Below are positions 9,591-27,897 of a stretch of DNA of 64,000 bases, in pieces (the first letter of the stretch is position 1; each line of letters begins with the position of its first letter). Position numbers and translations under genes: made by a program. Where the stretch lies: assembly GCA_013791885.1 (NCBI GenBank), contig VMSZ01000010.1:5869-69868 (forward strand), written 5' to 3'. This DNA is from Sulfurimonas sp. Lineage in GTDB: Bacteria; Campylobacterota; Campylobacteria; Campylobacterales; Sulfurimonadaceae. The notes below the pieces were generated by a model. It saw only the letters and a program-made list of their open reading frames with translations, made no database searches and was not told the DNA's origin.

Positions 9591-9620
9591 TACTAGTCCT
9601 TGTTGTTTAAATGAAAAAAA

Positions 9621-9629
9621 ATTATAGCA
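9621..9629 (-). promoter_or_regulatory. Extended -10 promoter (TGCTATAAT) of hpf
   Basis: The reverse strand reads TGCTATAAT about 30 nt upstream of the hpf ATG, followed by an AAGGA SD. Confidence 0.5.
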
Positions 9630-9647
9630 TTAAAAGGTTTATAAGAC

Positions 9648-10109
9648 TTATAATTTTTGGATAGTTCTTCTAAAATATCTAATTGGCTCTGTTCCAGCAT
9701 TTGCAGTGATAGGAACTGTGACTGTAACATCCATCAAAACAGAGCCATTTTGCTCGGGAGTTGATACAGGGGTGTATAAAGTTCCTCCATTTGTTGCACA
9801 AGGCACATTTGAGTCATAAATATATTGCATGGAAATATCTACAGTATAGATAATATCTTGAGTAAAGCTTTGATTTAGATTGGTACATGGCGGATTTTGT
9901 GCAATAAGCAGTAAAGCATACTCTGTAGCACTTTTAGAAAGCAGCACACTTTGTTCATAAAGGTAAAGATCCGTTGTGCTTTTTGTAGTCTGTGCCGTCA
10001 TTGCAAGAGACAAAGCCATAATCGTAGCCATAATAACAATGACAGCAATAGCCATAATCATAGCCATACCACGACGAAAAGATTTTAAAATATTGTTTTT
10101 TCTTTGCAT
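9648..10109 (-). CDS. PilX/GspK/MshP-like minor pseudopilin-type protein
   Basis: 153 aa. Basic N-terminus then hydrophobic helix RRGMAMIMAIAVIVIMATIMALSLAM, with no FTLIE motif. Last gene of the pilin-like operon. Overlaps the upstream gene by 25 nt. Confidence 0.5.
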   Translation of the reverse strand: MQRKNNILKSFRRGMAMIMAIAVIVIMATIMALSLAMTAQTTKSTTDLYLYEQSVLLSKSATEYALLLIAQNPPCTNLNQSFTQDIIYTVDISMQYIYDSNVPCATNGGTLYTPVSTPEQNGSVLMDVTVTVPITANAGTEPIRYFRRTIQKL

Positions 10110-11002
10110 AATGAGTACGTCTCCTCTATCATAAGGTCACTTTTGGTACACAGTTGTATTTTCACAATAGAACCTATCGCCATTGCTTGGAAAGTGCTGA
10201 CATTTTCCATAATTGTAAATTTTTTTATATTTTGTCCGGCAGTGTAAAACATTTCCCCATTCCATGGCTGGTAATCATAGTAAAATACCAGGTCTCCCAT
10301 TTTTGTCCCTGCGTTATAGTTCTCCATAACAACTGCGTTTGCCGTCCAAGTGAGTTGGTAGTATTCGTAAACATTCACTCCCGTAAAGCTATTTGTTGCG
10401 TTTGTAGCACCATTTCTAGGAACAAATTCATTGGCATTAGTTCCTTGTTTTATAGGATGCATTACTGAACCGTTTTGGTCTGCTAAAGCTGTTCCATTCC
10501 ATCCATACCCATCTATATCCTGATTTGAACCGATAAAATAGAGAGCGGCATCGTTGACTCCACTATTCCCATGAGATAAAGCGAAAATTGTGGAATTAAT
10601 ATCAGTTGTGTTAGTTGCCGGTGAGACAAGCAAGTTTGCGTTTCCGGCATCTAAATCAATAATGCCGCTCCAGTTTGGAGTGGTTGTAGCTCTAAAATTG
10701 TCTATATCACTTGATACCCATTCAAGCACGACAAAAGTTTCTCCGCTTGCATCTGCCAAGGGTGTAAATGTAGTTGTTTCACCTGTTCTAGCAATAATAG
10801 AATCTTTTATACGGTATTGCAAACGCGAAGCGATAAATTCGACTGCGTTTGCACTGTTTGCTTGAAGGGTATTGTTTATCGTTGAAGAGATAAAATTTCT
10901 ATACGCCTGTGCTAAAAACTCCACACCAAATTTACCTATTATCCCCATAATAACAATAACAAATATGAGTTCAAGCATAGTAAACGCAGGACGAAGTCTC
11001 AT
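10085..11002 (-). CDS. Prepilin-type N-terminal cleavage/methylation domain protein (minor pilin/pseudopilin)
   Basis: 305 aa. MRLRPA|FTMLELIFVIVIMGII leader with conserved Glu5. TAATG overlap with the upstream gene. Confidence 0.75.
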   Translation of the reverse strand: MRLRPAFTMLELIFVIVIMGIIGKFGVEFLAQAYRNFISSTINNTLQANSANAVEFIASRLQYRIKDSIIARTGETTTFTPLADASGETFVVLEWVSSDIDNFRATTTPNWSGIIDLDAGNANLLVSPATNTTDINSTIFALSHGNSGVNDAALYFIGSNQDIDGYGWNGTALADQNGSVMHPIKQGTNANEFVPRNGATNATNSFTGVNVYEYYQLTWTANAVVMENYNAGTKMGDLVFYYDYQPWNGEMFYTAGQNIKKFTIMENVSTFQAMAIGSIVKIQLCTKSDLMIEETYSLCKEKTIF

Positions 11003-11625
11003 TAGTAGCTCCTTTTGTAGTAGTCAACTTCACCGATGTTCGCGCTGTATGTAACCAAAGAGGTAACAAGAGTAGCTACTCCTCCGATTGACTCAAAGAC
11101 TGATACGGTGATTTTTTTCATATTGGTATTTGCACCATTAAAATTTACATTTGCATCAACCGCTACTGAAACTGTATAGACTTTTTTATATCCGGCTGCG
11201 TCGGTGTTTGTGTCATCAAATATGTTTCCCACTTTTTCCATATCGTCAAGAGAAGTGACGGCTGCGTTTGTGCTTGCATTGGAAGCTGCAGTTGTATTAC
11301 TGTCTAAACAGCGTCTATGGTATGGCTGGACAATATGCCCGGGTTTGAGTCTGTATCTTGGAGAAGAAGGATTACTCGTACAATTTCCGTCATCAATGAC
11401 ACGCTCTAAAGAGTTGGGAAATCCAGGCTCTATGGAAGCTTCATCCCAATTTGCCGTGACGGCTTGATTGAGTTCTGCAGAAGCTGCAAAAATCGCCTCT
11501 TGAACCATGTTTGCTTCAATACCTTTTGATGTTGCTTGTGTCATCATAGGCAAAGAAATAACAGCAATGGCTATCACTACGATTGCAAAAATCAGTTCTA
11601 TGAGAGTGAAGGCTGATCTTACCAC
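11002..11625 (-). CDS. Prepilin-type N-terminal cleavage/methylation domain protein (minor pilin/pseudopilin)
   Basis: 207 aa. MVRSA|FTLIELIFAIVVIAIAV leader. GTG start in a GTGGTAA overlap with the stop of the giant gene. AGGAGA SD 9 nt upstream. Confidence 0.75.
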   Translation of the reverse strand: MVRSAFTLIELIFAIVVIAIAVISLPMMTQATSKGIEANMVQEAIFAASAELNQAVTANWDEASIEPGFPNSLERVIDDGNCTSNPSSPRYRLKPGHIVQPYHRRCLDSNTTAASNASTNAAVTSLDDMEKVGNIFDDTNTDAAGYKKVYTVSVAVDANVNFNGANTNMKKITVSVFESIGGVATLVTSLVTYSANIGEVDYYKRSY

Positions 11626-14600
11626 GTGGTTCTCCTGTTGGTTCTGTTAGAAGCATCAGGATTGGTTGTCGTATTTGTTTCATGCTTTCCTGCCCAGCCA
11701 CCGCCAGTTCCTAAAAACTCAACTTCAAATTCATTGTTTGTGTCATTGATGTTATATCTGTTATATATAAGCCAGCTTGAAGCGTTGTTTTCCATAGTTG
11801 TTTTGTATGGGTAGCCTTTAGTAGCTGCTGCATTGTAGGTTAAGGTACTTAGATACGGATTAGCGTTTGTAGATGCGGTCTCTGATACAGTACCTAAACT
11901 GTTCTTTTGTGAAATAGTTCCAACGACTCCAGAGGAAGAAGGCATATGAGAAGTATTGACAAACCATCTCGGGTCATCATTACTTACAGATGGAGTGCCA
12001 TCTGGTAAAAGATTTTTATCACATCCTGTACCATTACAAAAAACTTCATAATATATTGGAACTACTCCAGTATTGCCTATAAAAACTTGTCTTGGTGCGT
12101 TTGTACGACCATAGTAGTGTCTTATGGTTGCGTTTGTGCTTAAGTTTGCATCTGCTTCATGAGAGAAGGACACATTAGCCATAGAACTACAGTCTGAAGC
12201 TATTTGACATTTTACTTGAAGGTTTTCAAGTCCGATTTCTATGGGATTTACAGCAAGCGACTGGTTTCTATCAAAGTTAATCGAAAGATTCATATCCAAT
12301 GAGCCATTTTGTTCTTTAATAAAGCTCGTTTGTGCAAGAGTAAGTAAATTAAATGATGCATTTGTTGCTGGAGCAGGAATAATAGCATTGTTATCATTCC
12401 AAATCGCTGCACTTGTATTTATTTCTTGTAGTCTATAACGCCAGTTTGGGAGACCTGCTATGGTTGGAAAGGTGAGATTTACATCAAGATGTAAAGGTTC
12501 TGCATAACAATTATTTACAAAATTATTGACCGTTGCTCCATCAGCACCTTTCGCAGATATTTGACCGGAATATCTTATACTCATATTCTCATCGGTAGTA
12601 ATATTATTCATATAAATCCAATCAGTCTGATTGATAAGAGTTGTATTGAAATCTGTTCCTTTTGTAAAAGCAAGAGAAAAATCAAAATGGTGTGGTCTAA
12701 AAGTGAGGTTGTAATCAGAATATGATATACCAGTATAAAGATTGCTGTGAGTGGATGAAATTTCACATCCGACTAAGTTGTTATTGTAGGAATTTACATT
12801 GCTGTAAAGAGGTACACCACTTCCGCTGATGCAATCATAACCTGAAATCCAGTTGTTTCCTATGACATGATGCACAGGTGATTTATCTATGAAGGTCCAG
12901 GCAGAATCTATCATTTTTAATTCGTATCTGCCAATATTAGGATTGCTACGATTTTGGTCTTCTGTACTTCCATTGCTAAGATAGAAGTCTAAGTTTGTGT
13001 TATTTGTATCATTGCATCCAGAACTTATGTGACCGTTTGGTTCCCAATAAAATGTGGCATTACGATCTAAACCGGAAGAGGCATTATAAATAGCTGTATA
13101 CCCAGGTGTTGGATTTGAACTAATGTGATTAGTAGCATCAATATCGAATTCATAGTTGTATCCTGCAGCTAAGTTTGCTTCATGGGGAATAACATTGCTA
13201 AATCCTCCAACTGTATCTTTTATTTGAATGTTAAAAGCTTCCGGTCTAATTGAAAAGTTGTCTCGAGAACATAAGCTGACAGATTTGAGTCCGTAAATAC
13301 ACTTCATGCATGTGGATAAATCAGAAGCAGTCATACCTGACCCATTACCCCCGCCATTGTTTCCACACCACTGTGGTACTGTATCTGTACCGTTAGCTAT
13401 ATCAGCAGCGCAAACTTGACCAGCATATGTTGTAAAATTTTTCAATTTATATCTGCCTGTTGTTACTTCTTCAATTTGCACAGAGCCATTATTGTCATCG
13501 AGGTTATAGCTGATTCGAAAAGCGGTATTTTCTCTTGCCGTAGCATAAAATTCATTTGTTGTTACTGTTAGATTTAAGCCGGTTTCAAGTAGTGATGCAT
13601 CGAAATTTGCAAAAGTTACATTTTCATCTATGGTATTACCAAGCACTACCCATGCTTGTTTTGTTATGGCACTTCTTGGATCAGCACAAGAAGCATTTAT
13701 ATCATAATACCCGGCAACATCTATCATTTCAACAGCAACAACTCCGCTTGATGCCTTTACTGTATCGGGATTTAGCGGGTCAAAAGAGACTATTTTCATT
13801 TCGGTAGGGCGACTTGCTACCTGCGTTGGGAGATTGTATTTAATATTGCTGGCTCCATCTAAAACATTAGGATTTAGAGTAGAATCTACCATGTTGTAAA
13901 TACCGACAGCAGGAATATATGGCGAAGGGCTGGCGGTACATCTTGGAATTGTATTTGCAAAAGGTAAGTTCGTTAGACTATAGGTAGTTCCGTTTAAGGT
14001 ATAATCAAAATCAATATAGAGATTCAGGGGTACATCTATTGAACCGGATGATGAGGGGTTTATATTAAAGTTCGTAAAAATACTTTGAGTATAACCCAAT
14101 ACATTTGGAGATTTTAAAAAATTAAATTTTAAATCTGATTTTGAAAGAGTGGAAATATCAGCAGATGCTACACCATAATAAGCTGTTGCATCTGGATTAG
14201 TGATGGTTAAATCCAGTGCATTCAAGTCTGTAAAGAATTCTAGCTCATTAGTACTGTTGAGGTCATCGATAAAAAGTTTAATATTTTCTGCTTCGGTACC
14301 AGATTCCATATTTCTGAGCATGATGCTTGTCGATATGGGAGAAGTGTTATACAGCACCCCATGTATATGTGGAGTGAGAGAAGTATCATGTTGAAAAAAT
14401 CTTCCAAGCTGTGAAAAAGAGTAGTCATAGCAGAGTTGAGGGATGTACAAATCAGTTGAGAAACCAACAACTCCCAAAATAACCCTATCGCTGGTAATAG
14501 CCATTTTGATAGTTGTCGCTGTTTGCTCATTGCTGAGTTGCGCTTGAAAGTTACGAATGTCTATCGCCATAACAGGTGTTAGATTAGGACTCCTATTTAG

Positions 14601-16628
14601 ATTGTCTGTTCCATCTTTATTAGTAATTGCACCATTCCAGCCAGGTCCATTGTCAACCTCAATATATGTTCCTCCATTTGATTCACTATCTCCCTGTGTT
14701 ATATGTAAAGTTTCCGCTGCTGTAGCGCTTCCTTCTCCATCGCCAATAAACATTGTCAGAGTGGAGTTAACTGTAGCTGGAGCTTTAGGTGTATAAAACC
14801 CGCTAACATCAAACTGCATTGTTCGGTGATATATGCCTAGAGAAGCGGCTTTTTCTGCATCGGTTGAGCCACTCATAGCTGAGCCGTTGAGTGTTGCATA
14901 TGTTATGGCGTCATCATTTTTTCCATCATATAAGGCAATAAAGCCATCGTTGACGCTTACATTTCTAAATGTTCCAGCGGGATCTTCATAGACAATTACC
15001 AAATTCCAAGCGCCCAAAACACCAATGGGAATGAGATAACCAGTGTCGGCGACAATGTTTGAAACAGTGTACTCACCACTTGCATTTCCTCCATTAGCAG
15101 CTTCGACGGCTTTGAGATCATTTGTGACATTGTAAAAGCCTTGATATAAAAAAGCATCTTTATGATTCCAAGAGCGGAGATTTACTGACTTTGTTGTTCC
15201 TCCGCTATATTGACTTACATATGTAGCTTGTGAATCATTTTCCGTATTGCCGACATCTTGTTCAGTAGGGTCAAAGCTTGCATGTGTATAGAGCCATCTG
15301 AAGTCACTTACTGCAGTAGAACTTGTATTGTATAAGCCAGAATTAATGGCAGCAGTTTTTGTTGATGCAGCTCCTGTAGGTGTTTTAAATACTACACTTC
15401 TTGCAGCAGAACGTCTTTGGTCTAGTGCTCCTCCGGCATCTTTTGAAGTATTTGAAGAGTCTTCAATATGTCCTTCCCAAAAGAGTCCTGCCCATTTAAT
15501 TTTTGCACCAGTAGGTATACTTAATGTTGCTTTAGATTGGTTATTATACGAGGAACTAGAATCTAATGCACTTGGGAGATTCGCAGCAATGGATGTCGTG
15601 GTTTCCGCAATAATTGGGATAACATTTCCTGCTTGATTTCCCTGTGTTAAACTTGCCGTTCCTTGCACGTCACATTGGCCATCTCTGTCAAAGTCTGTAC
15701 AATAGTTGCTGTTACCAATAGAGACCAAGTCACCGACTACATTTGTTTGAACTAAAGGAACGCTAAAATCTTTAGGATGTGGATGCTTGAAAGTTGCAGA
15801 GCGGTTTATTGGATCATAAAAAGAGAGTTGAAGCTGGTAGTCCGTAGTGCTTGTGGTATCTGCTCTAAACTGAACATAGTACGTACTATTGGGTGCTAAA
15901 AGCGAGGAGTAAATATTTTGAGAAACGTTCTTCCCGTCTTTTTTTCCTTTTCGCTGCGCTTGTGACAGTGTAGTCTGAGAACCGCATACTCCCTCATTTA
16001 AAAACATTGTAACATTTTCGGCTTGATTGTCTATGTTGAGATAATTGACTTTTACACCAACATAATTTCCACCGTTGGGATTTGCAGGGGCAGTAAATTT
16101 ATACCAGCCATTTTGCGTACCGTTACTTTTTATACTGCCAGTAGCTGTGTAAGGAGAAACAAGTGTATTTGCTCCAGCACATGTTGTCCCGTCAGCTTTT
16201 TGAAAATTGATAGATATTGTATAGTTTATCGTTTTATTTCTGCTTATGTGAATATAAATCCAATCTCCAGAAACTACGGTAAAGGATGGTACAGAATGAG
16301 AAAGTGCTTGGCCTCCACTATAGATAGAGTTATCCCCACAGCTACTTTTCGATACATCAAAATAAAAATTTTGCGCTGTGGTTTGAGAAACAGAAATGTT
16401 GAGTGTTCCTGCAGCACTCATCTGAAATTTGAAGTAATCGTCACTATCGCTGGATGATAAAGTCCCAGATGACGTTGCTGTACCGGATACAGACCAGTTC
16501 GTCAAAGCGCTGATAGTCTCTCCTGGACATACATTGTTACTAGGTTCACTGTCTGCATACACACTACTTTGTATTAACAGTAATAAAAGTAAAAATCTAT
16601 ATACAGTTTTTATAAATATATTATCCAT
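11619..16628 (-). CDS. Giant secreted protein (1669 aa), pilus-associated adhesin-like, possibly MshQ-like
   Basis: Uninterrupted ORF. I place the start at the ATG at 16628 (GAGGAG SD 7 nt upstream), not the track start at 16673. Signal peptide MDNIFIKTVYRFLLLLLLIQSSVYA|DS. Two tandem PPC-like modules, then a long N/T/S-rich beta-type sequence with no TM helix or known sorting tail. Confidence 0.8.
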   Translation of the reverse strand: MDNIFIKTVYRFLLLLLLIQSSVYADSEPSNNVCPGETISALTNWSVSGTATSSGTLSSSDSDDYFKFQMSAAGTLNISVSQTTAQNFYFDVSKSSCGDNSIYSGGQALSHSVPSFTVVSGDWIYIHISRNKTINYTISINFQKADGTTCAGANTLVSPYTATGSIKSNGTQNGWYKFTAPANPNGGNYVGVKVNYLNIDNQAENVTMFLNEGVCGSQTTLSQAQRKGKKDGKNVSQNIYSSLLAPNSTYYVQFRADTTSTTDYQLQLSFYDPINRSATFKHPHPKDFSVPLVQTNVVGDLVSIGNSNYCTDFDRDGQCDVQGTASLTQGNQAGNVIPIIAETTTSIAANLPSALDSSSSYNNQSKATLSIPTGAKIKWAGLFWEGHIEDSSNTSKDAGGALDQRRSAARSVVFKTPTGAASTKTAAINSGLYNTSSTAVSDFRWLYTHASFDPTEQDVGNTENDSQATYVSQYSGGTTKSVNLRSWNHKDAFLYQGFYNVTNDLKAVEAANGGNASGEYTVSNIVADTGYLIPIGVLGAWNLVIVYEDPAGTFRNVSVNDGFIALYDGKNDDAITYATLNGSAMSGSTDAEKAASLGIYHRTMQFDVSGFYTPKAPATVNSTLTMFIGDGEGSATAAETLHITQGDSESNGGTYIEVDNGPGWNGAITNKDGTDNLNRSPNLTPVMAIDIRNFQAQLSNEQTATTIKMAITSDRVILGVVGFSTDLYIPQLCYDYSFSQLGRFFQHDTSLTPHIHGVLYNTSPISTSIMLRNMESGTEAENIKLFIDDLNSTNELEFFTDLNALDLTITNPDATAYYGVASADISTLSKSDLKFNFLKSPNVLGYTQSIFTNFNINPSSSGSIDVPLNLYIDFDYTLNGTTYSLTNLPFANTIPRCTASPSPYIPAVGIYNMVDSTLNPNVLDGASNIKYNLPTQVASRPTEMKIVSFDPLNPDTVKASSGVVAVEMIDVAGYYDINASCADPRSAITKQAWVVLGNTIDENVTFANFDASLLETGLNLTVTTNEFYATARENTAFRISYNLDDNNGSVQIEEVTTGRYKLKNFTTYAGQVCAADIANGTDTVPQWCGNNGGGNGSGMTASDLSTCMKCIYGLKSVSLCSRDNFSIRPEAFNIQIKDTVGGFSNVIPHEANLAAGYNYEFDIDATNHISSNPTPGYTAIYNASSGLDRNATFYWEPNGHISSGCNDTNNTNLDFYLSNGSTEDQNRSNPNIGRYELKMIDSAWTFIDKSPVHHVIGNNWISGYDCISGSGVPLYSNVNSYNNNLVGCEISSTHSNLYTGISYSDYNLTFRPHHFDFSLAFTKGTDFNTTLINQTDWIYMNNITTDENMSIRYSGQISAKGADGATVNNFVNNCYAEPLHLDVNLTFPTIAGLPNWRYRLQEINTSAAIWNDNNAIIPAPATNASFNLLTLAQTSFIKEQNGSLDMNLSINFDRNQSLAVNPIEIGLENLQVKCQIASDCSSMANVSFSHEADANLSTNATIRHYYGRTNAPRQVFIGNTGVVPIYYEVFCNGTGCDKNLLPDGTPSVSNDDPRWFVNTSHMPSSSGVVGTISQKNSLGTVSETASTNANPYLSTLTYNAAATKGYPYKTTMENNASSWLIYNRYNINDTNNEFEVEFLGTGGGWAGKHETNTTTNPDASNRTNRRTTW

Positions 16629-16698
16629 CTTTAACTCCTCACAAAAAATGCCGCACCCAAAAATAGGGCTCAAGAATACTCAAACTTGCGTTTACTTT

Positions 16699-16706
16699 AT
16701 TATACA
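16699..16706 (-). promoter_or_regulatory. Extended -10 promoter (TGTATAAT) of the giant-protein/pilin operon
   Basis: The reverse strand reads TGTATAAT about 70 nt upstream of the 16628 ATG, in a 169-nt intergenic region. Confidence 0.45.
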
Positions 16707-16797
16707 ACTTTTTTTAAGTGTCTATTCTGAAATAATGTAGAATTATAAAAAGTGATTAATGTTTTTAAAAGAATGAAGATAAAAAAGTGCTTAGAAA

Positions 16798-17958
16798 TTA
16801 ATTTTTTTCGAGAGAAAAAGTCTTGAGTAGATTTTCAAGTAATTTAGCTTTGACTTCATTGTTTTCTCTCTGAATTCTCACATCTATTTCATTTTTTACT
16901 ATCTCTAAGGCGTGTAGGCACTCTTCATACAAAGCAAGCACATCACTTTTGGAAAGTTCACAAAACTCAACTCCAAAACGCAGCAGATATTTTTTATCCC
17001 ACCATTTTTTGCTTCCTAAAAGAGTGAGTGCAGGTATGTCATTTTTTATGTACACAGTTGTTGAAACTATGTCATACGCCGGAGCGAGTTTGATGTCTGT
17101 AATATTTTTGTAAATGAGCCCAAAGTTTTTAAGGTGGGCATCGCCGTTTTGTACTAAATTGTTTATGATGATGATTTTAAAAAATGCTTGTAAAGATGCT
17201 CTTTTATGCTCTGGAGATACAAATATTTTTATGCTTTTTGCAATCTGCTCGTAACTTCCTTCGTATTTGTCCTCTCTTTGTTTGGCTTGAAGAACGCACA
17301 TATCTTCAAAGCCTAAAGTTGTGCCATCCTCTTGTATGTCAAACCTTTTCATAATAAACAACTTGTCATCATCTGAGATGTAAAAGTCTGCAACATCTAT
17401 GCCTGCATATTTTGCTATGCTCATGCAATAATATTCATTGAGTGCCAACTGAGGATAATCATCGCCCCATGATTTGACAATATAGTCATCGAGTTTGAGT
17501 GTGGCTTTGTCTTGAACTCTTGCTAAAACTTTGGGTTGGACTCCACTGAGAGGCGAATTTAGTGCAAATCTGGAGACAAGTTCATTAAATAAATTTATTG
17601 ATTTTGGTTGTAAAAGTTCTTCAAGAGTTAAGAATTGTTCTTGAATTTCATCTGTATGAACATATGTTAATCTTCCATGTATGCTCTTTGACATGAGTTG
17701 GAGTAAGCCAAAATCATCTGTTTTTACTATTTTAGAAAAGTGTTTTTTTATGATAGAAAGAAGATAGCCTTCGGGTAAATGCATTTCAAAAATGGGGTGT
17801 AAATGTTTGTTTGCATAACTCTTTGCGCGTACTTGCATGGTGAGAGAAATAAAAGCATTTTTATTTTCACTGGTATAAGAAAAGAGAAATTCATCATTTT
17901 CTTTTGTCAGCTGACCGACTAGTTTTTTTTCTACTTCAACATAAAGTTTATTTTCCAT
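16798..17958 (-). CDS. hipA: HipA-family serine/threonine kinase toxin
   Basis: LSGVQPKVL and NGDAHLKNFG (catalytic loop) motifs. I prefer the ATG at 17958 (AGGAG SD 7 nt upstream) over the TTG at 17973. Overlaps the hipB stop by 11 nt. Confidence 0.8.
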   Translation of the reverse strand: MENKLYVEVEKKLVGQLTKENDEFLFSYTSENKNAFISLTMQVRAKSYANKHLHPIFEMHLPEGYLLSIIKKHFSKIVKTDDFGLLQLMSKSIHGRLTYVHTDEIQEQFLTLEELLQPKSINLFNELVSRFALNSPLSGVQPKVLARVQDKATLKLDDYIVKSWGDDYPQLALNEYYCMSIAKYAGIDVADFYISDDDKLFIMKRFDIQEDGTTLGFEDMCVLQAKQREDKYEGSYEQIAKSIKIFVSPEHKRASLQAFFKIIIINNLVQNGDAHLKNFGLIYKNITDIKLAPAYDIVSTTVYIKNDIPALTLLGSKKWWDKKYLLRFGVEFCELSKSDVLALYEECLHALEIVKNEIDVRIQRENNEVKAKLLENLLKTFSLEKN

Positions 17959-18190
17959 CTCTAAGCTCCTCAAATGATGGAAACATTCCTTTTTCTTTTA
18001 ACTCTATTTCGTACCCCAAGTAGTCAAGGATTTGTAAAACTTTTTTAAATCCAACATCGGCTTCACCATTGTTTTCAAGGGAGCTGATGGTTGCTCTTGA
18101 AATCCCAATGTCAGATGCAAGTTGCGTTTGTGAGATTTTTTTCTTTTTTCGCAGAAAAGATAATGCTTTGCCAAATTCTAAATAATCCAT
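17948..18190 (-). CDS. hipB: XRE-family HTH antitoxin (HipB-like)
   Basis: 80 aa. HTH motif ISQTQLASDIGISRATISSLENN. Sits immediately upstream of and overlapping hipA. Confidence 0.8.
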   Translation of the reverse strand: MDYLEFGKALSFLRKKKKISQTQLASDIGISRATISSLENNGEADVGFKKVLQILDYLGYEIELKEKGMFPSFEELRDGK

Positions 18191-18220
18191 ACAATTCCAA
18201 TAGTGTAAAATATACTAGTC

Positions 18221-18272
18221 ATTATATGTTTATTTTCTCTTAATGTCAAATATAATTGACATTAAGAGAAAA
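18221..18272 (-). promoter_or_regulatory. hipBA promoter (TTGACA-17 nt-TATAAT) embedded in a perfect 17-bp inverted repeat (putative HipB operator and fliW terminator)
   Basis: Reverse strand: -35 TTGACA (18249-18244), 17-nt spacer, -10 TATAAT (18226-18221). Inverted repeat TTTTCTCTTAATGTCAA (18233-18249) / TTGACATTAAGAGAAAA (18256-18272) with a 6-nt spacer. Confidence 0.65.
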
Positions 18273-22099: not shown

Positions 22100-22477
22100 T
22101 TATAGTATAACCGTAGCTATTTTTTTCATTAAATCATCATTTCTTATAGGCTTCATTAAAAACCCGTTTGCACCAAACTCTAAAGCATCACCTTTCTTTG
22201 TTTCATCAGTTGTAAGTACAATGATAGGAAGCTGGCGAAGATTGTCATCTGCGCGTACTACTTTAAGCATATCTATCCCGCCCATAATAGGCATAATGAT
22301 ATCAAGTAGAATGAGATCAATATCATCTCTTTTTTTCAGCTCTCCTATGGCATCAGAACCATTTTTAGCTTCAATAACCTCTTTTACATTACCACTTTTC
22401 ATCAACATCGATCTTAAAAGTTTCAAATTAATTAAATCATCATCAACTGCTAAAACCACTAGGTCTTTTTTTATCAT
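22100..22477 (-). CDS. Single-domain response regulator (CheY-like receiver)
   Basis: 125 aa. VLAVDDD...LILLDIIMPIMGG...K receiver signature. No output domain. Confidence 0.88.
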   Translation of the reverse strand: MIKKDLVVLAVDDDLINLKLLRSMLMKSGNVKEVIEAKNGSDAIGELKKRDDIDLILLDIIMPIMGGIDMLKVVRADDNLRQLPIIVLTTDETKKGDALEFGANGFLMKPIRNDDLMKKIATVIL

Positions 22478-22486
22478 TTTTTAGCC

Positions 22487-25400
22487 TTAAATAAATTTTT
22501 CAAACACGAGTCTTAACAGATCTTTGTTTACAATATTTTTGATGCTCTCGTGTACATAAAGAGCGTCATCAGAATTTTCGATTGACGAAGAGTCATTAAT
22601 AAGTACTAAATAACTGTCTAGATTTCTACTTTGATTAGCTTCTTTTACTCTATTAGAAAAAGCTTCTAAATCTAAACCATCACACTCTTTATCAAATAAA
22701 ATCAACTTGTAGCTGTCATCTTCTATCATTTTTTGCATTTCATCGACAGAATTTGCAATCTCAAAAGTATAACCAAGAGAAAGCAATACTTTAGTGTAAA
22801 GTTTTGCCTCAAAAGGTGTTTTTTTGGCGAGAAGAATGTCTGCTTTATAACTTGCAGGTTCTACAAGATTCTCTTCTGTTAATTCCAGTGGCTCATCTGT
22901 GAAAGCGTCTTCCATAGGAATTTCTTCTTCTGCAAGCACTTCTTCTGTGATTGTTTCAGGCTCAGCAGATATTATCTCTTTTTCTTTCGTTTGTTCTTCT
23001 GCCCGAGCAGTTTCAATAGCTTCTTGTGCGCTTTTTGGAATCTTTTTCTCTTGGATAATATAATCAAATAAGAAATGATTCAATAAAGTTACTATTTCTG
23101 CACGAACGAGAGGTTTAGTCGTATATTCATCAAGCCCAGCTTCTAGGAATCTCTCTCTATCGCCTTTAAGTGCATTTGCTGTAAGCGCTACTATCGGAAC
23201 ATGTGGCTGATTATATTCTGCTTCATACTCAAGTATTTCTTTTGTCGCTTCAACCCCATCAAGGAATGGCATTTGAATATCCATGAAAATCATGTCGAAG
23301 TTCCCATCTTTTCTTTTTTGAAAGGCTTCAAGACCATTCGAGGCAATAGAAACAGTAAGGCCTAAATCTTCAAGAGTTCTTTGAATCAATTTTTGATTGA
23401 TTATATTGTCTTCCGCAACTAAAACATTAGCATCGAATTTTGATGTTAAGGCATCAAAAGTTTTTTTAGAAGGTTTGTTGGCTCTTTTTTCGTTGAAATT
23501 ACCTTTGCTGTAATTTTCTAAAACAAGTTTAACTTTGGTAGAATTGAGAGGCTCATACAATGTTTTAAAGATATTTGCATGCAGAGATTCAATTTTTTTC
23601 ATAAAGTAAGATTTTGTTAGTAGGATAAGCTCTTGAGGCAATGCTCCATAGGCGACCAGGCTCTCTTCAGAAACATAATCGAAATCAACAAATACTAAGT
23701 CGTAACTGACTTGTCTCTGCAATGTTTCAATTTCACTAATATCTCTAAATGTTGTGTAGCTCACTCCAAAGAAATCTAAGTACTCACGAAGATATGTTTC
23801 TTGACGTTTTGTTTTATGTGAAGATTCCTGAACAAGAGCATTAATACTTGAATAAGAGCCTTTAATGCTTTCATTGAGTGTTTCTACCTCTTCAAAATCT
23901 ATTGTAAAGAAGAAAGTTGTTCCATCGCCAGGCTCACTATGAAGGTCTAAGTGACCACCCATAAGTTCTATAAATCTGCTTGAAATAGTAAGACCAAGAC
24001 CAGTTCCACCATACTTACGTGTAATTGACGTATCGGCTTGAGAGAAGGCTTCAAAAATTCTTGATTTTTGTTCACTGGTTACACCAATACCACTATCTTG
24101 AACTTCAAATCTTATTCTTGTTATTCCATCTTCCTCAGATGGAATTTTTCTTATATCTACATTGATTGAACCTGCGCTGCTTGTGAACTTGACAGCGTTT
24201 GAGAGAAGATTAATGATAACTTCTTTAATTTTTGTAGGGTCACCTTTAAGCGGCTGTTCAAGTGCAGGATCAACAAAACATCCAAGATCAATATGCTTTT
24301 CGCTTGCGCGAACAGCATATACTTCAACAGCACTGTTAAACTCTTCTACCGGGTTAAACGCAATGTTCTCAATTTCAATTTTGTTGCTTTCGATTTTTGA
24401 AAGGTCAAGAATATTATTGATAATTTCAAGAAGATTTTCTGAACTTTTTTCAATGATTTCAACAAACTCAGATTGCTCTTCTTTGAGCCCTGTATCTTTA
24501 AGAAGCTCGGTAAAACCAACAATCCCGTTTAGAGGTGTTCGAATCTCATGAGACATATTTGCAAGGAACATAGATTTTGCTTCACTTGCTTCTTGCGCAG
24601 AAATTTTATCCTCTCTGGTTTGTTTAATAATTCTCTCAAGGAGTGCATAGGCTTCAGCTGTTCCTTCAGATGTATGAAGGTTGATGTTTGATTTGTTTTC
24701 ATCATCATCAGTATCCTGTGCAACTTTTTGAAGTACGTTCTCAAGGTTTTTAATATTTCTTGCAATATCATTTGAGAGTAAAAAACCAAGTATGGCAAGA
24801 ATAACAGAAACAAGCCAGATAGTTAAAGTGATGGTCAAAAATTGAAGAGCATCAGTCTGGACTTTTATGGCTCTATTATCCATAGCGGAAAGAATTAAAT
24901 CTTCAGCTTTTGATAAAATATTTGTTTTCTCAGAGAGCATTGTAAACCAAATGCCCGAACTTGTTTCATATTCTCCTTCTTGCGAATCGGAAATAATCTG
25001 TGTTCTCTCAGTGTTGATGTCATCTAAAAGTTCAAGCGTGTCTTCACTTTTTATAATGGCATTAATTTCAGCAATCAAAGCTTTGTTTTGAAGTGTGTCA
25101 TAGTTTACTGTGTCGGCTTTGGCAATAAGTGAAATCCATGTATTGAATTCCCCTTCTTCAAGTGGTGTAGCCCGAGCGATAGTAAAAGAGACAAAGTCCC
25201 GCTCTGCAGCAGTAAATTCTTTGGCACGAACCATAGAAATATATGAAGAAGAAAGTTCATTAATTTCAGCATCCATTTGCTTACTAGTAATCTCTTCTAG
25301 TTGTTTAATTCCTTTTAACTGCGCTTTACCGTAAACTTTTTCGTAAACATCTGTAAAGTTTGTTTGCTGTGTGTCAACAAGTTGTCTTATTTTTTCAATC

Positions 25401-25786
25401 TCTTCAATCGATTGTGAAATTGATTTAATATTTGTACAGCTTAGACAATTGGAAACACCATTGGAATGGTCATGCAGAGCACTGTTTTCTTTTGTATGTG
25501 TTATATATTTTTTTTGTATCTCATCAACTATCTTTCTCTGTTTCATAAGTGACTTGAGAGTGTTCTCGGAAGAGTTTCCAAGATAGATAACTGTCATACC
25601 TCTTTCACGTGAGATATTCCCAACAAGTTCATTAAGGAGTCTGTTTTCAGAGAGTTTGTCTTTTAGAAGTTGTGCTGCCTTGTAATTTGCATATGAGTCG
25701 TATAAAAAATAACTCGTAATAGAAAATAAAAGTAAGATAGGGAAGAGACTGATAAGTCTTAGTCTGTTTTTTAGTCCTAATTGCAT
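22487..25786 (-). CDS. Hybrid sensor histidine kinase with periplasmic NIT-like (nitrate/nitrite-sensing) domain
   Basis: 1099 aa. Two TM helices flank a domain with NISRERGMTVIYLGNSSE and AAERDF motifs (NIT-like). H-box SHEIRTPLNG, HATPase, receiver VLVAEDNIINQ...MDIQMP, plus degenerate receiver-like regions. Confidence 0.8.
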   Translation of the reverse strand: MQLGLKNRLRLISLFPILLLFSITSYFLYDSYANYKAAQLLKDKLSENRLLNELVGNISRERGMTVIYLGNSSENTLKSLMKQRKIVDEIQKKYITHTKENSALHDHSNGVSNCLSCTNIKSISQSIEEIEKIRQLVDTQQTNFTDVYEKVYGKAQLKGIKQLEEITSKQMDAEINELSSSYISMVRAKEFTAAERDFVSFTIARATPLEEGEFNTWISLIAKADTVNYDTLQNKALIAEINAIIKSEDTLELLDDINTERTQIISDSQEGEYETSSGIWFTMLSEKTNILSKAEDLILSAMDNRAIKVQTDALQFLTITLTIWLVSVILAILGFLLSNDIARNIKNLENVLQKVAQDTDDDENKSNINLHTSEGTAEAYALLERIIKQTREDKISAQEASEAKSMFLANMSHEIRTPLNGIVGFTELLKDTGLKEEQSEFVEIIEKSSENLLEIINNILDLSKIESNKIEIENIAFNPVEEFNSAVEVYAVRASEKHIDLGCFVDPALEQPLKGDPTKIKEVIINLLSNAVKFTSSAGSINVDIRKIPSEEDGITRIRFEVQDSGIGVTSEQKSRIFEAFSQADTSITRKYGGTGLGLTISSRFIELMGGHLDLHSEPGDGTTFFFTIDFEEVETLNESIKGSYSSINALVQESSHKTKRQETYLREYLDFFGVSYTTFRDISEIETLQRQVSYDLVFVDFDYVSEESLVAYGALPQELILLTKSYFMKKIESLHANIFKTLYEPLNSTKVKLVLENYSKGNFNEKRANKPSKKTFDALTSKFDANVLVAEDNIINQKLIQRTLEDLGLTVSIASNGLEAFQKRKDGNFDMIFMDIQMPFLDGVEATKEILEYEAEYNQPHVPIVALTANALKGDRERFLEAGLDEYTTKPLVRAEIVTLLNHFLFDYIIQEKKIPKSAQEAIETARAEEQTKEKEIISAEPETITEEVLAEEEIPMEDAFTDEPLELTEENLVEPASYKADILLAKKTPFEAKLYTKVLLSLGYTFEIANSVDEMQKMIEDDSYKLILFDKECDGLDLEAFSNRVKEANQSRNLDSYLVLINDSSSIENSDDALYVHESIKNIVNKDLLRLVFEKFI

Positions 25787-25789
25787 CTT

Positions 25790-27475
25790 TTAAGCCTCTT
25801 TATTTGAAATTTGCGACATTATCGCATCAATTTTATCTATAGAATCTAAAGCCACGTTTGAATCTGAACTTTTAATAATTGTGTCGAGCTCATGTGAGAG
25901 CTCCATAATCCTCATATTTTCACTCATACCTTTAAGTTTCATTGCTTTCACCTTCCATAAGTCTGAATTTTCATTGTTGATTGCATCCCTTATTTGTTTA
26001 CATTTAACTTGACTCTCATCTATGAAATCATCAAAAAGTTCATTAAATGATTCTATATCAATACCTATTTCATTTGCGATGATTTCTCGTTTATAGTTGA
26101 TTGTTACTTTTTCTTTCTCCTGCGTTTGAAGAAGTGCTACAGGCTGAATTTCTTTATCTTCATCTGTGTTGAGAAGTTCAAGTTTTTCTTCGTCATCAAA
26201 CGTATCTAGCATATCCGGCAGTTCATTAATCTCTGAAACTTCCAAAGATAAATCGTCAGCATCAACTGTATCAAAATCTATGTCTAATAAATTAGGAGAG
26301 AACTCTTCTATATTGTTTGGCTTAAAATCATCATCAGCAAGTTCAGGCATTTTAATAGTGTTTGGAACTTCATTGTCATCGACATTGATTTCTATAGGAA
26401 CATCGAAGTCATCATCTTTAAAGTCTACAACAAATTCATCTTCTTCGCTGCGTGCATTATTTACAGCTATGGTGTCAGCAGGTGTCTCACCTGAAAGTTT
26501 AGAGATAATTCTATAGAATTTATCGAGATTAGAGTGTATGATGGGAAAATCAGTCGCTGTATTAACTACAGTTAAAGCTTCAAGTGCATCTACAACCCTA
26601 AGATTTGCAGCAACACCTTTGAGTTTATGTGAAAGTATTTTTACATTAGAAATATCTAGTTCATGCAATGATGCATATAACTCATCTTTAAACTCTTGAG
26701 CCTGCGCAATAAAATCTTGTATAAACTCTTCAATTAAGTCAACTGGAAGTCCGAGCTCTTTTGACGCTACATTAGGATCAAAGACATAGTCATCGTGATG
26801 ATTTTTTTGATGTGTTTCTGTAGTGGTTTTAGGAACTTCTATGTGATGAGCTTTAGGTACTTCAACAGATTTAAGGGGCTCATGTTGCGGTTTTGGTGCA
26901 GGTATGTCTTCTTCAATTTCTATTTCTAGAGGAAAATCATCATAAAGATCTTCGATTACACTGTTGTATGTCTGTATCTCTTCAATCTCTGGTTCTATTT
27001 CCGTGAGTTCTTCTTTGATTGGTTCTTTGATTGGTTCTGCGTGGAGCGTTTCAAAATGGTTGAATGGAGCTGCAGGGGGAGTGTATGCAGGAGTCTGAGC
27101 CTGCTTATGTGCAATATCGATTGCAACGCTGCTGCTCTCACTATCGCTGAGTCTTCTAAGATTTTGAAGATTTACAATAAAAGCTTTCTCTGTCGGATTA
27201 TCGCTCAAATATATAGGAGTAATTTTTAGATTACATTTATAATTTATTGAATGCGCATGAATTATAACTTTTGGTGGTTCTGTTGAGTCTGCACAAGTAA
27301 TAAAATCTATCCAATGGACATGTTTGAAGTTATGAATATAACCCGGTGTTTTAACAAATAAATCTGAGAAATCTGAAACTTCAGCCTGCAAACTTATTAA
27401 GTCTTTAAAGCCTAAAGCTTGTAGATCAACTTCGTCAATACCTAAAAACTCTTTTTTATAGTTGTAAATTAACAT
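25790..27475 (-). CDS. Hpt-domain phosphorelay protein with two Hpt-like modules and acidic linkers
   Basis: 561 aa. Canonical Hpt SHKLKGVAANL (His283). Second Hpt-like module KAMKLKGMSENM with Met512 at the His position. D/E-rich low-complexity linkers. TAATG overlap with the upstream PAS gene. Confidence 0.75.
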   Translation of the reverse strand: MLIYNYKKEFLGIDEVDLQALGFKDLISLQAEVSDFSDLFVKTPGYIHNFKHVHWIDFITCADSTEPPKVIIHAHSINYKCNLKITPIYLSDNPTEKAFIVNLQNLRRLSDSESSSVAIDIAHKQAQTPAYTPPAAPFNHFETLHAEPIKEPIKEELTEIEPEIEEIQTYNSVIEDLYDDFPLEIEIEEDIPAPKPQHEPLKSVEVPKAHHIEVPKTTTETHQKNHHDDYVFDPNVASKELGLPVDLIEEFIQDFIAQAQEFKDELYASLHELDISNVKILSHKLKGVAANLRVVDALEALTVVNTATDFPIIHSNLDKFYRIISKLSGETPADTIAVNNARSEEDEFVVDFKDDDFDVPIEINVDDNEVPNTIKMPELADDDFKPNNIEEFSPNLLDIDFDTVDADDLSLEVSEINELPDMLDTFDDEEKLELLNTDEDKEIQPVALLQTQEKEKVTINYKREIIANEIGIDIESFNELFDDFIDESQVKCKQIRDAINNENSDLWKVKAMKLKGMSENMRIMELSHELDTIIKSSDSNVALDSIDKIDAIMSQISNKEA

Positions 27476-27897
27476 TAATTAGCCTCATTTTCAGAGTTGA
27501 GCATTTTTGTATACAATTCATCACTCTCTTGAATATTTTTTCTTGAAGCAGGTTTTCTTGCAGCTATGTAACCAATAAGCTTTCCCTCTTCATCTTTTAT
27601 GGGTAAAATTTCAGTTTCTACCCAGTAGTATAAGCCGTCTTTCCTAAGGTTCTTTACAAGCCCGTTCCAAGCCTGCCCGCCTTGGATTGTAGACCACATC
27701 TTTTCAAAAGCAGCTTTTGGCATGTCTGGATGCCTGATAATATTATGTGGTTTACCGAGAAGTTCTTGCGCACTATAGCCAGAAATTTGACAAAACATTT
27801 TATTTGCATAAGTAATAACACCATGCAAATCCGTCTGGCTAATAATGACATTGCCATCAAACATATACTCTTCATTAATAGGTACTACTTTATCCAT
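27475..27897 (-). CDS. Stand-alone PAS domain protein
   Basis: 140 aa. TDLHGVITYANKMFCQISGYSAQELLGKPHNIIRHPDMP... PAS_3-type sequence, similar in kind to CetB/Aer-type energy sensors. Confidence 0.8.
   Translation of the reverse strand: MDKVVPINEEYMFDGNVIISQTDLHGVITYANKMFCQISGYSAQELLGKPHNIIRHPDMPKAAFEKMWSTIQGGQAWNGLVKNLRKDGLYYWVETEILPIKDEEGKLIGYIAARKPASRKNIQESDELYTKMLNSENEAN

Follow-up and report, generated by a model that had tools for sequence, protein, structure and literature searches.

The DNA analysed here is a 64,000-nucleotide (64-kb) stretch of contig VMSZ01000010.1 (positions 5,869 to 69,868 of the forward strand) from the Sulfurimonas sp. assembly GCA_013791885.1, and is referred to below as the window. 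On its minus strand lie four overlapping genes, one for a very large protein with a predicted signal peptide (the giant) and three for pilin-like proteins (A, B and C). Together they probably specify the complex at the tip of a type IV filament (an 'initiation' or 'licensing' complex), with a new kind of adhesin. The four genes are the following, with coordinates given as positions in the window and protein lengths in amino acids (aa).

11619-16628, minus strand: giant gene, from the list of open reading frames (ORFs); 1669 aa from the ATG at 16628
11002-11625, minus strand: gene A, pilin-like, 207 aa, GTG start
10085-11002, minus strand: gene B, pilin-like, 305 aa
9648-10109, minus strand: gene C, GspK/PilX-type, 153 aa, Glu5 absent

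The genes are joined by short overlaps. At the giant/A junction (GTGGTAA, 11619-11625) the final Trp codon and the stop codon of the giant are shared with the GTG start of A, at the A/B junction (TAATG, 11000-11004) the stop codon of A overlaps the ATG of B, and B and C overlap by 25 nt (10085-10109). The first-pass annotation of this DNA had described four coupled genes with these overlaps, and both the ORFs and the junctions are confirmed. The 25-nt overlap is dual-coding, in the window and at the same position in 37 loci, and specifies the C-terminus of B (CKEKTIF-stop) as well as the start of the leader of C (MQRKNNIL); since the two share coding nucleotides, the conservation of each may partly reflect that of the other. 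Similarly, the terminal TGG-TAA of the giant gene forms part of the GTG of A, so that constraint at the nucleotide level contributes to the conservation of the tail of the giant.

Relatives of the giant were sought in one genome per species, which gave 231 stretches, 80 of which were listed. All but one of the listed stretches are labelled as Campylobacterota, either as Sulfurimonas, Sulfuricurvum, Sulfurovum, Sulfurospirillum, Arcobacter or Hydrogenimonas or more broadly. The lone exception (locus L074; JAADCY010000223.1) is a 5-kb contig in the metagenome-assembled genome (MAG) of a Thermoproteota archaeon that encodes a member of the giant family, and it is most likely a binning contaminant. 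The cassette occupies a common chromosomal slot, between Lon-BamD-FliW and HPF-RecG, in approximately 72 of 85 related loci (Sulfurimonas, Sulfuricurvum, Sulfurovum, Sulfurospirillum and Arcobacter), a count of complete sets that allows for frameshifts and contig ends; of the incomplete loci, six end after A, five are without downstream DNA and two are lone giants (L010 and L011). The typical order in the listed loci, as well as in S. autotrophica and S. gotlandica GD1, is the giant gene, then genes for proteins of ~210, ~300 and ~160 aa, with hpf after these. The overlaps recur too: 7 nt between the giant gene and A (48 of 59 loci), 1 or 4 nt between A and B (50 of 59) and 25 nt between B and C (37 of 59). 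Chance adjacency of the four genes can be excluded, because the same genes and overlaps recur in dozens of species.

Variations on this layout are seen at several loci. Two giant genes stand in tandem in L033 (9314-19959) and L048 (3115-13245), each ending in NTNRRIxW and followed by one A-B-C set and hpf, which suggests interchangeable tip proteins for a single set of minor pilins. An extra pilin-like gene lies between B and C in L017 (15011-15442) and L049 (6663-7097), encoding a 143-aa classical pilin (FTMIELIFVIVIIGIL...IPKF), and an extra pilin-like gene of ~200-225 aa lies 3' of C in L024 (16329-16988), L078, L079, L081 and L046 (three of L024, L078, L079 and L081 are labelled Sulfurovum and one Campylobacterales). 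The extra gene may encode a fourth minor pilin of the GspH/FimU type or a major pilin. The lone giants of L010 (7763-15266; tail YDYAPAMQ) and L011 (140-4048; tail YDYAPAVQ) have no pilin genes downstream and both adjoin an NIT-sensor kinase cluster; in L010 the giant gene is followed by a gene for a predicted AAA-ATPase/PD-(D/E)XK protein.

The N-termini of A and B are those of prepilins. Both have the class III signal peptide of the type IV pilin superfamily with Glu5 present and, in the window copies, Ala at residue -1, and both exceed the 16.3-bit cut-off of the prepilin-motif model TIGR02532 (A, MVRSA/FTLIELIF, 20.3 bits; B, MRLRPA/FTMLELIF, 16.8 bits; the slash marks the cleavage site). 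Across 60 loci the motif is kept in A as [AG]/F[TS][ML]IELIFAIV, while B shows the same motif class together with an invariant C-terminal pair of Cys residues (C285 and C299 in the window) and N_methyl is detected in 56 of the 60 B proteins. The family profiles of A and B place the post-cleavage residue on residue 1 of mature pilins in the PDB (best E for B of 3.9e-7). Protein C, with the leader MQRKNNILKSFRRG/MAMIMAIAV, has a pilin-like N-terminal helix without Glu5 and is the last of the triplet, which is the pattern of a K-type pilin in an I-J-K set; across the 60 loci it is kept as G/[FIM]AMIMAI, again without Glu5. C matches the GspK model over the N-terminal ~80 residues of the model only (E of 2e-5; 24 bits versus a cut-off of 130), and 41 of 60 members of the C family match it (best E of 1.1e-8), all below the cut-off. 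The earlier description of two prepilin-type genes and a PilX/GspK/MshP-like gene therefore stands.

Beyond the N-terminal helix the matches are sparse. Weak matches of A were to ComGF, ComGE, GspI and PilV. The whole-protein NCBIfam cut-offs for gspI, GspJ and GspK were not reached (A scored 18 bits versus 44 for gspI, and B had no match to GspJ), and alignment with E. coli GspG-K and PpdA/B/YgdB/PpdC using hhalign paired only the N-terminal residues of A and B and nothing credible for C. In NCBI the window A, B and C are proteins of a Sulfurimonas sp. MAG that carry generic names only ('prepilin-type N-terminal cleavage/methylation domain-containing protein', 'type II secretion system protein' and 'hypothetical protein'). 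From gene order and the weak ComGE, GspI and PilV matches, we propose that A is a PilI/GspI/MshD-type minor pilin; C is proposed to be a PilK/PilX/GspK/MshP-type apical minor pilin, and B to be of the PilJ/GspJ/MshO type on the basis of its position and size alone. The I-J-K gene order hardly varies, whether in type IV pili or in the type II secretion system (T2SS) (Ellison et al., 2026; PMC13533445).

The giant can be divided into five parts, all encoded on the minus strand.

16554-16628, minus strand: Sec-type signal peptide, aa 1-25, MDNIFIKTVYRFLLLLLLIQSSVYA/DSE, read from the translation, with a predicted cleavage site
15774-16520, minus strand: variable N-terminal modules, aa 37-285; module 1 is marginally PPC/collagen-binding-domain-like
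14424-15773, minus strand: 'head', aa 286-735, predicted jelly-roll-type β-sandwich with α/β insertions; ~25% identity across the family
11703-14423, minus strand: conserved stalk, aa 736-1642, predicted array of β-sandwich domains with invariant Cys residues
11622-11702, minus strand: T/N-rich linker and C-terminal peptide (...TNRRTTW-COOH), a proposed trans β-strand for C

The protein is rich in Ser, Asn and Thr (30.5% together) and contains 22 Cys residues, and no hydrophobic stretch other than the signal peptide was found in it, in agreement with its first description as a signal-peptide-bearing, N/T/S-rich protein without a transmembrane helix. The signal peptide contains neither a lipobox Cys nor a prepilin motif, and an N-terminal hydrophobic run is present in 171 of 222 members of the giant family. 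Searches against Pfam (E<=1), NCBIfam and the PDB (phmmer and a family profile) returned nothing for the giant beyond a marginal collagenase chain; five homologues were also scanned against Pfam (E<=0.1). Together with the structural searches described below, this places the giant in no named family; the first-pass annotation had likewise been unable to assign it to one by eye beyond two N-terminal PPC-like modules. It does have a large family of its own: an exhaustive phmmer search of 1.84 billion cluster representatives gave 921, 793 and 475 proteins at E<=1e-3, 1e-10 and 1e-30, respectively. Full-length matches extend to the C-terminus, in proteins of up to 2037 aa. Word-indexed searches with the full-length, low-complexity giant found only 6-7 proteins, and the family was recovered once the query was an alignment of 62 sequences covering the C-terminal 950 aa.

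Conservation is concentrated at the C-terminal end. The last 950 aa are the most conserved part (30-60% identity across the family) and contain many invariant Cys residues and an invariant motif, CSRDNF.IRPE, at aa 1120-1130 of the giant. At the other end, the two N-terminal modules had been annotated as PPC-like; module 1 does match the clostridial collagenase chain 5iku, marginally (E of 0.0034), while for module 2 there was no significant match and no significant internal repeat with module 1, so the assignment is supported only marginally, through the first module. In the relatives, precomputed Pfam matches to the N-terminal modules include He_PIG immunoglobulin (Ig), cadherin, Calx-beta, VCBS, DUF11 and choice-of-anchor L domains, and homologues are named either 'hypothetical' or after these modules. 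The N-terminus thus looks, evidently, to be exchangeable between species, and we regard the giant as representing an unnamed, large and phylum-restricted family of candidate tip adhesins.

Structure prediction gave folded models for both the head and the stalk. The AlphaFold2 model of the head (residues 280-760) has a predicted local distance difference test score (pLDDT) of 78.7 and a predicted template-modelling score (pTM) of 0.85; a Foldseek search with it against the PDB found nothing at E<=1e-3, and the weak matches were lectin-like or carbohydrate-binding-module-like. The stalk (last 950 aa, modelled with a 49-sequence alignment) is predicted to be all-β, with a pLDDT of 86.5 and a pTM of 0.77. 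Foldseek matched the 950-aa stalk only to generic arrays of multiple Ig or macroglobulin domains (complement C3/C5, integrin legs and cadherin), with a TM-score of ~0.1. The last 27 residues of the giant have a pLDDT of less than 50 in the AlphaFold2 model and are predicted to be disordered.

The disordered tail nevertheless ends in a conserved peptide. The C-terminal residue is Trp in 207 of 232 family proteins, in 191 of these within N-R-R-x-x-W, and 19 of the 232 end instead in [DE]-Y-x-P-x-x-R, a class that belongs to the Sulfuricurvum group. The C-termini of all four cassette proteins differ between the two classes.

Giant: TNRRxMW in the main class, YDYTPATR in the Sulfuricurvum group
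A: NIGEvDYYKRxF in the main class, FKSNVGKFSE in the Sulfuricurvum group
B: YSlCKEKTIF in the main class, CRERMVHVRY in the Sulfuricurvum group
C: EPIRYFRRTIQKL in the main class, RVxKRSWQKL in the Sulfuricurvum group

Position -4 of C is Ile, Leu, Val or Met at all 52 of the 52 loci with a Trp-ending giant, and Trp at six of the seven with an Arg-ending giant. This covariation fits a direct contact between the terminus of the giant and the last strand of C; it is weak evidence, because it represents a single evolutionary event.

The machinery on which such proteins would act was not found beside them. In the 64-kb window, phmmer searches with E. coli GspC/D/E/F/L/M/O gave nothing, a Pfam scan of ten unclear ORFs identified all of them as other things and none as machinery, and the class III motif occurs in A and B and in no third ORF; the first-pass annotation had likewise noted that assembly genes were lacking from the 64 kb. 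Across the 85 loci there is no GspD/E/F/O-type gene within 10 kb of the cassette and no GspC/L/M-type gene near it. The ATPase, platform protein, secretin, prepilin peptidase and major pilin would then be encoded elsewhere in the Sulfurimonas genome. This is plausible given what has been described in the same group: putative systems of the mannose-sensitive haemagglutinin (MSH) type have been detected computationally in Epsilonproteobacteria; Thiovulum has type IV pilus (T4P) assembly genes with closest relatives in different pilus types (T4aP, T4bP and MSH) and shows short filaments by electron microscopy; and homologues of ctsD/E/F/G are scattered in the genome of A. butzleri. The machine served by the cassette may accordingly be MSH-like, T4aP-like or Cts-like.

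Among known systems, one of the closest parallels is PilC/PilY1 with PilI-PilJ-PilK (PilV-W-X) of the type IVa pili of Neisseria, Pseudomonas, Acinetobacter and Myxococcus, in which a large Sec-exported non-pilin is encoded with the three core minor pilins. The cassette likewise encodes a Sec-type non-pilin together with I/J/K-type minor pilins, adjacent in ~72 loci. The likeness extends to the K-type pilin without Glu5, to the short conserved peptide at the extreme C-terminus (essential in PilC/PilY1) and to duplication of the adhesin (PilC1/PilC2 in Neisseria; the tandem giants of L033 and L048 here). The differences are that the giant has no C-terminal β-propeller or vWA domain, and is modelled instead with a β-sandwich stalk and a jelly-roll head; that the adhesin gene is first here and last there, usually with no fourth pilin of the FimU/PilH type here; and that, within 10 kb, the cassette adjoins no other pil genes at any of the 85 loci. 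The giant was also considered as a PilY1 homologue and this was rejected, given the lack of a Pfam match at E<=1, the β-sandwich AlphaFold2 model and the lack of PilY1 among the listed Foldseek PDB results.

The second parallel is MshD-MshO-MshP-MshQ of the MSHA pilus of Vibrio cholerae, which shares with the cassette a giant protein of ~1200 aa or more. The sizes of MshD, MshO and MshP presumably resemble those of the three pilins here (~200, ~300 and ~150 aa). We take LamG/Laminin_G_3 and DUF6701 to be the typical domains of MshQ, and Pfam (giant, E<=1; five homologues, E<=0.1) and NCBIfam detected none of them. The first-pass annotation had likened the arrangement to PilY1 and MshQ complexes, and had rightly noted that the gene order is unlike both, with the adhesin first here; its candidate MshQ-like, LamG and PilY1 folds did not emerge from Pfam or NCBIfam, nor was PilY1 among the listed Foldseek results from the PDB, which contains no MshQ structure. 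Relative to the MSHA set the gene order is cyclically permuted (Q-D-O-P), with the giant upstream of the three pilins, and the cassette stands alone, with no msh, gsp or pil machinery within 10 kb at the 85 loci, whereas the MSHA set ends a 16-gene msh locus. By analogy, the cassette would be functionally like PilY1 with PilVWX or MshQ with MshDOP, yet the giant does not show the testable defining features of either family; what appears new is a family of candidate tip adhesins with a dedicated I-J-K set, a permuted gene order and a stand-alone genomic position.

A mechanism that could accommodate these features has recently been described for PilC/PilY1. The last ~10 residues of PilC/PilY1 complete the β-sheet of the K-type minor pilin and, in the working model, a PilI-PilJ dimer recognizes the PilC/PilY1-K pair to form a quaternary complex that licenses fibre assembly (Ellison et al., 2026; PMC13533445). 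In the T2SS, GspK supplies this strand in cis, and MshQ (~1200 aa, encoded beside mshD-O-P) is predicted to act like PilY1 by donating its C-terminus to MshP; the same authors expect further tip subunits that are not yet identified (PMC13533445). The parts list of the cassette (two pilins with Glu5, a short K-type pilin without it, a giant with a tethered conserved peptide, and translational coupling) leads us to consider it probable that the four genes encode a tip licensing complex of this kind. The Sec signal, the lack of a transmembrane segment, the 22 Cys residues, the all-β stalk and the swapped N-terminal modules are what make the giant resemble a tip adhesin.

In this mechanism, a single mRNA with overlapping stop and start codons would yield the four proteins together. 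The giant would be exported by Sec, while A, B and C would enter the inner membrane via their N-terminal helices, with prepilin peptidase cutting before Phe1 in A and B and after Gly in C. The last ~10 residues of the giant, on their disordered linker, would then complete the small β-sheet of the short K-type pilin C, a step for which the conserved disordered tail and the Trp covariation with C are suggestive, by analogy with PilC/PilY1. The A-B (I-J-type) pair would recognize the giant-C heterodimer, and the resulting four-protein complex would prime polymerization of the major pilin and end up at the filament tip, where the stalk would present the jelly-roll head and the exchangeable N-terminal binding modules as an adhesin. 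Export, processing, strand addition, tip location, adhesive function and the identity of the machine are all predictions of this scheme.

Several observations weigh against a tip licensing complex. The C-terminus of C (EPIRYFRRTIQKL in the main class) is itself highly conserved and could form the closing strand of its own sheet, a cis arrangement like that of GspK, in which case a trans strand would be unnecessary; strand addition is argued from analogy and from one clade-level covariation. In hhalign and PDB profile searches, none of the known minor pilins resembled A, B or C in the globular region, and the labels I, J and K are drawn from the Glu5 pattern, the sizes and the gene order. The giant has no β-propeller and, in these searches, no sequence link to PilY1 or MshQ, and its adhesin-first order differs from both pilVWXY1 and mshDOPQ. 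A filament machine is presumed in the cassette-bearing genomes, and at two loci (L010 and L011) the giant is without adjacent pilins. Set against these are the motifs of A, B and C, the predicted Sec-exported, disulfide-rich and all-β giant and the conserved coupling of the genes, with no machinery within 10 kb, and on this footing the adhesin-plus-minor-pilin cassette proposed by the first-pass annotation is supported.

One alternative is that the cassette forms the tip of a T2SS-type pseudopilus, with A, B and C as a GspI-J-K-like cap and the giant as a cargo that passes through the secretin and is released or only loosely associated with the surface. The I-J-K order, the overlapping genes and the K subunit without Glu5 are all shared with GspI-GspJ-GspK, C matches no family model other than GspK (at scores far below the NCBIfam cut-offs), databases call A, B and C 'type II secretion system protein' and the conserved C-terminus of C could be a cis strand as in GspK. 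A loosely held giant would also be in keeping with T2SS cargo, which is not strand-locked to the tip (PMC13533445). However, it is unusual for the gene of a T2SS substrate to overlap, and be translationally coupled to, those of minor pseudopilins, and the T2SS set has no giant partner protein; the tethered conserved peptide and the covariation of all four C-termini point instead to a stable complex. At 153 aa, C is moreover about half as long as E. coli GspK (327 aa), the gspC-M genes are not adjacent and a GspC/L/M-type gene is found near none of the 85 loci. We therefore judge this alternative to be unlikely.

It is similarly improbable that the cassette forms the tip of a Cts-type DNA-uptake pseudopilus, in which the giant would serve in DNA capture or secretin gating rather than in adhesion, although this alternative concerns which filament the cassette serves and partly overlaps the tip licensing complex. 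The V. cholerae and B. subtilis competence filaments have no large tip protein (PMC13533445), and the exchange of Ig, cadherin and Calx-beta modules between species is more suggestive of binding to varied surfaces than to DNA. The argument for it is largely one of position within the same phylum: in C. jejuni, ctsT (cj1077) directly follows fliW (Cj1075) and proC (cj1076), which is the slot of the cassette (FliW, with or without ProC, and then the cassette), and the order FliW-ProC-giant is found in L002. The cts homologues of A. butzleri (ctsD/E/F/G) are scattered, as filament genes would be here, and the weak matches of A include the competence minor pilins ComGE and ComGF. CtsT, however, is only 100 aa, no giant gene is reported at its locus, a BLAST search of A. 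butzleri detected no CtsT homologue, and it can be likened to the cassette by position only.

A filament-independent anchor, in which an inner-membrane trio of pilin-like proteins would hold or chaperone a periplasmic or surface giant as an orphan cassette (presumably parallel to the 'Verru_Chthon cassettes' of TIGRFAMs), would account for the lack of machinery genes within 10 kb at any locus and for weak matches of A to Verru_Chthon cassette proteins C and D, but is very unlikely, since those matches cover the N-terminal helix only and lie far below the cut-offs of the set TIGR02596-TIGR02600 (17.6 versus 256.5 for protein C and 12.2 versus 70 for protein D), the giant matches nothing in that set, the class III signal peptides of A and B are kept with Glu5 across the phylum, which implies processing and filament-type packing, and filament genes are commonly scattered in this phylum.

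Two candidate expression signals precede the giant gene.

16699-16707, minus strand: extended -10-like element TTGTATAAT, ~70 nt 5' of the giant ATG; a consensus match only
16635-16639, minus strand: Shine-Dalgarno sequence AGGAG, 7 nt 5' of the ATG at 16628

The promoter-like element of the first-pass annotation is present as a sequence (TGTATAAT at 16706-16699 on the minus strand); its reading as a promoter is weakened by the 40 promoter-like matches in the region versus 32 expected by chance from shuffled sequences, which is not an enrichment. The longest ORF of the giant opens at a TTG at 16673, which is unlikely to be the start; the AGGAG 7 nt upstream supports the ATG at 16628 as the true one. 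At the other end of the cassette, no terminator-like site was found in the interval between C and hpf (9591-9647), a 57-nt spacer that contains TGCTATAAT; transcription of hpf may start at a promoter of its own, continue from the cassette or do both.

In the window the cassette is flanked by HPF and RecG on one side and by a HipA/HTH pair, FliW, a BamD-like lipoprotein and Lon on the other. The pair (16798-18272), between fliW and the cassette, consists of a HipA-like kinase (386-391 aa; HipA_C, Couple_hipA) overlapping an 80-aa HTH_3 protein. It looks like an inserted toxin-antitoxin module, as in the relatives L001 and L089 fliW adjoins the giant gene directly. Upstream of the pair lies a perfect TTGACA-17-TATAAT (18249-18221, minus strand) that overlaps the 5' arm of a 17-bp inverted repeat (18233-18272), and the repeat may be an operator. 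Beside Lon, at 22100-27897, are genes for a response regulator, a 1099-aa NIT-domain hybrid histidine kinase, an Hpt-like protein and a PAS protein, and this NIT-kinase cluster is syntenic in L001, L002, L088 and L089.

We found no paper describing this cassette and no description of pili in Sulfurimonas; the words pilus, pili and pilin are all absent from a review of the genus (PMC4584964), and the type IV filaments of Campylobacterota are almost unstudied beyond DNA uptake in C. jejuni. A tip licensing complex may have wider consequences, and a bolder reading can tentatively be put forward, as a possibility somewhat short of even. With PilC/PilY1 and MshQ as the first two, the giant would found a third class of type IV filament tip adhesins, unrelated to them in structure, with no propeller but with a β-sandwich stalk, exchangeable modules and a Trp-terminated docking peptide, strand-locked onto a minimal K-type pilin. 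Sulfur-oxidizing Campylobacterota, both free-living and as represented by the MAG of a snail endosymbiont (L060), would build an adhesive surface pilus from scattered genes, and the ctsT locus of C. jejuni would be a reduced remnant of the cassette.

The principle itself would be no surprise to pilus specialists; the mechanism has just been published and would here be extended to an unrelated adhesin fold. Because the adhesin shares neither fold nor sequence with PilY1, and because its docking peptide occurs in two co-varying versions, the cassette offers a natural test of the generality of the 2026 'β-strand addition' licensing model. It would also provide a candidate function for several hundred family proteins that are now 'hypothetical'. 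Conserved, and constant in its chromosomal position, in Sulfurimonas, Sulfuricurvum, Sulfurovum and Sulfurospirillum (dominant sulfur oxidizers at vents, redoxclines, caves and aquifers), the cassette may give a handle on how these bacteria attach to sulfur, to minerals, to hosts and to each other.

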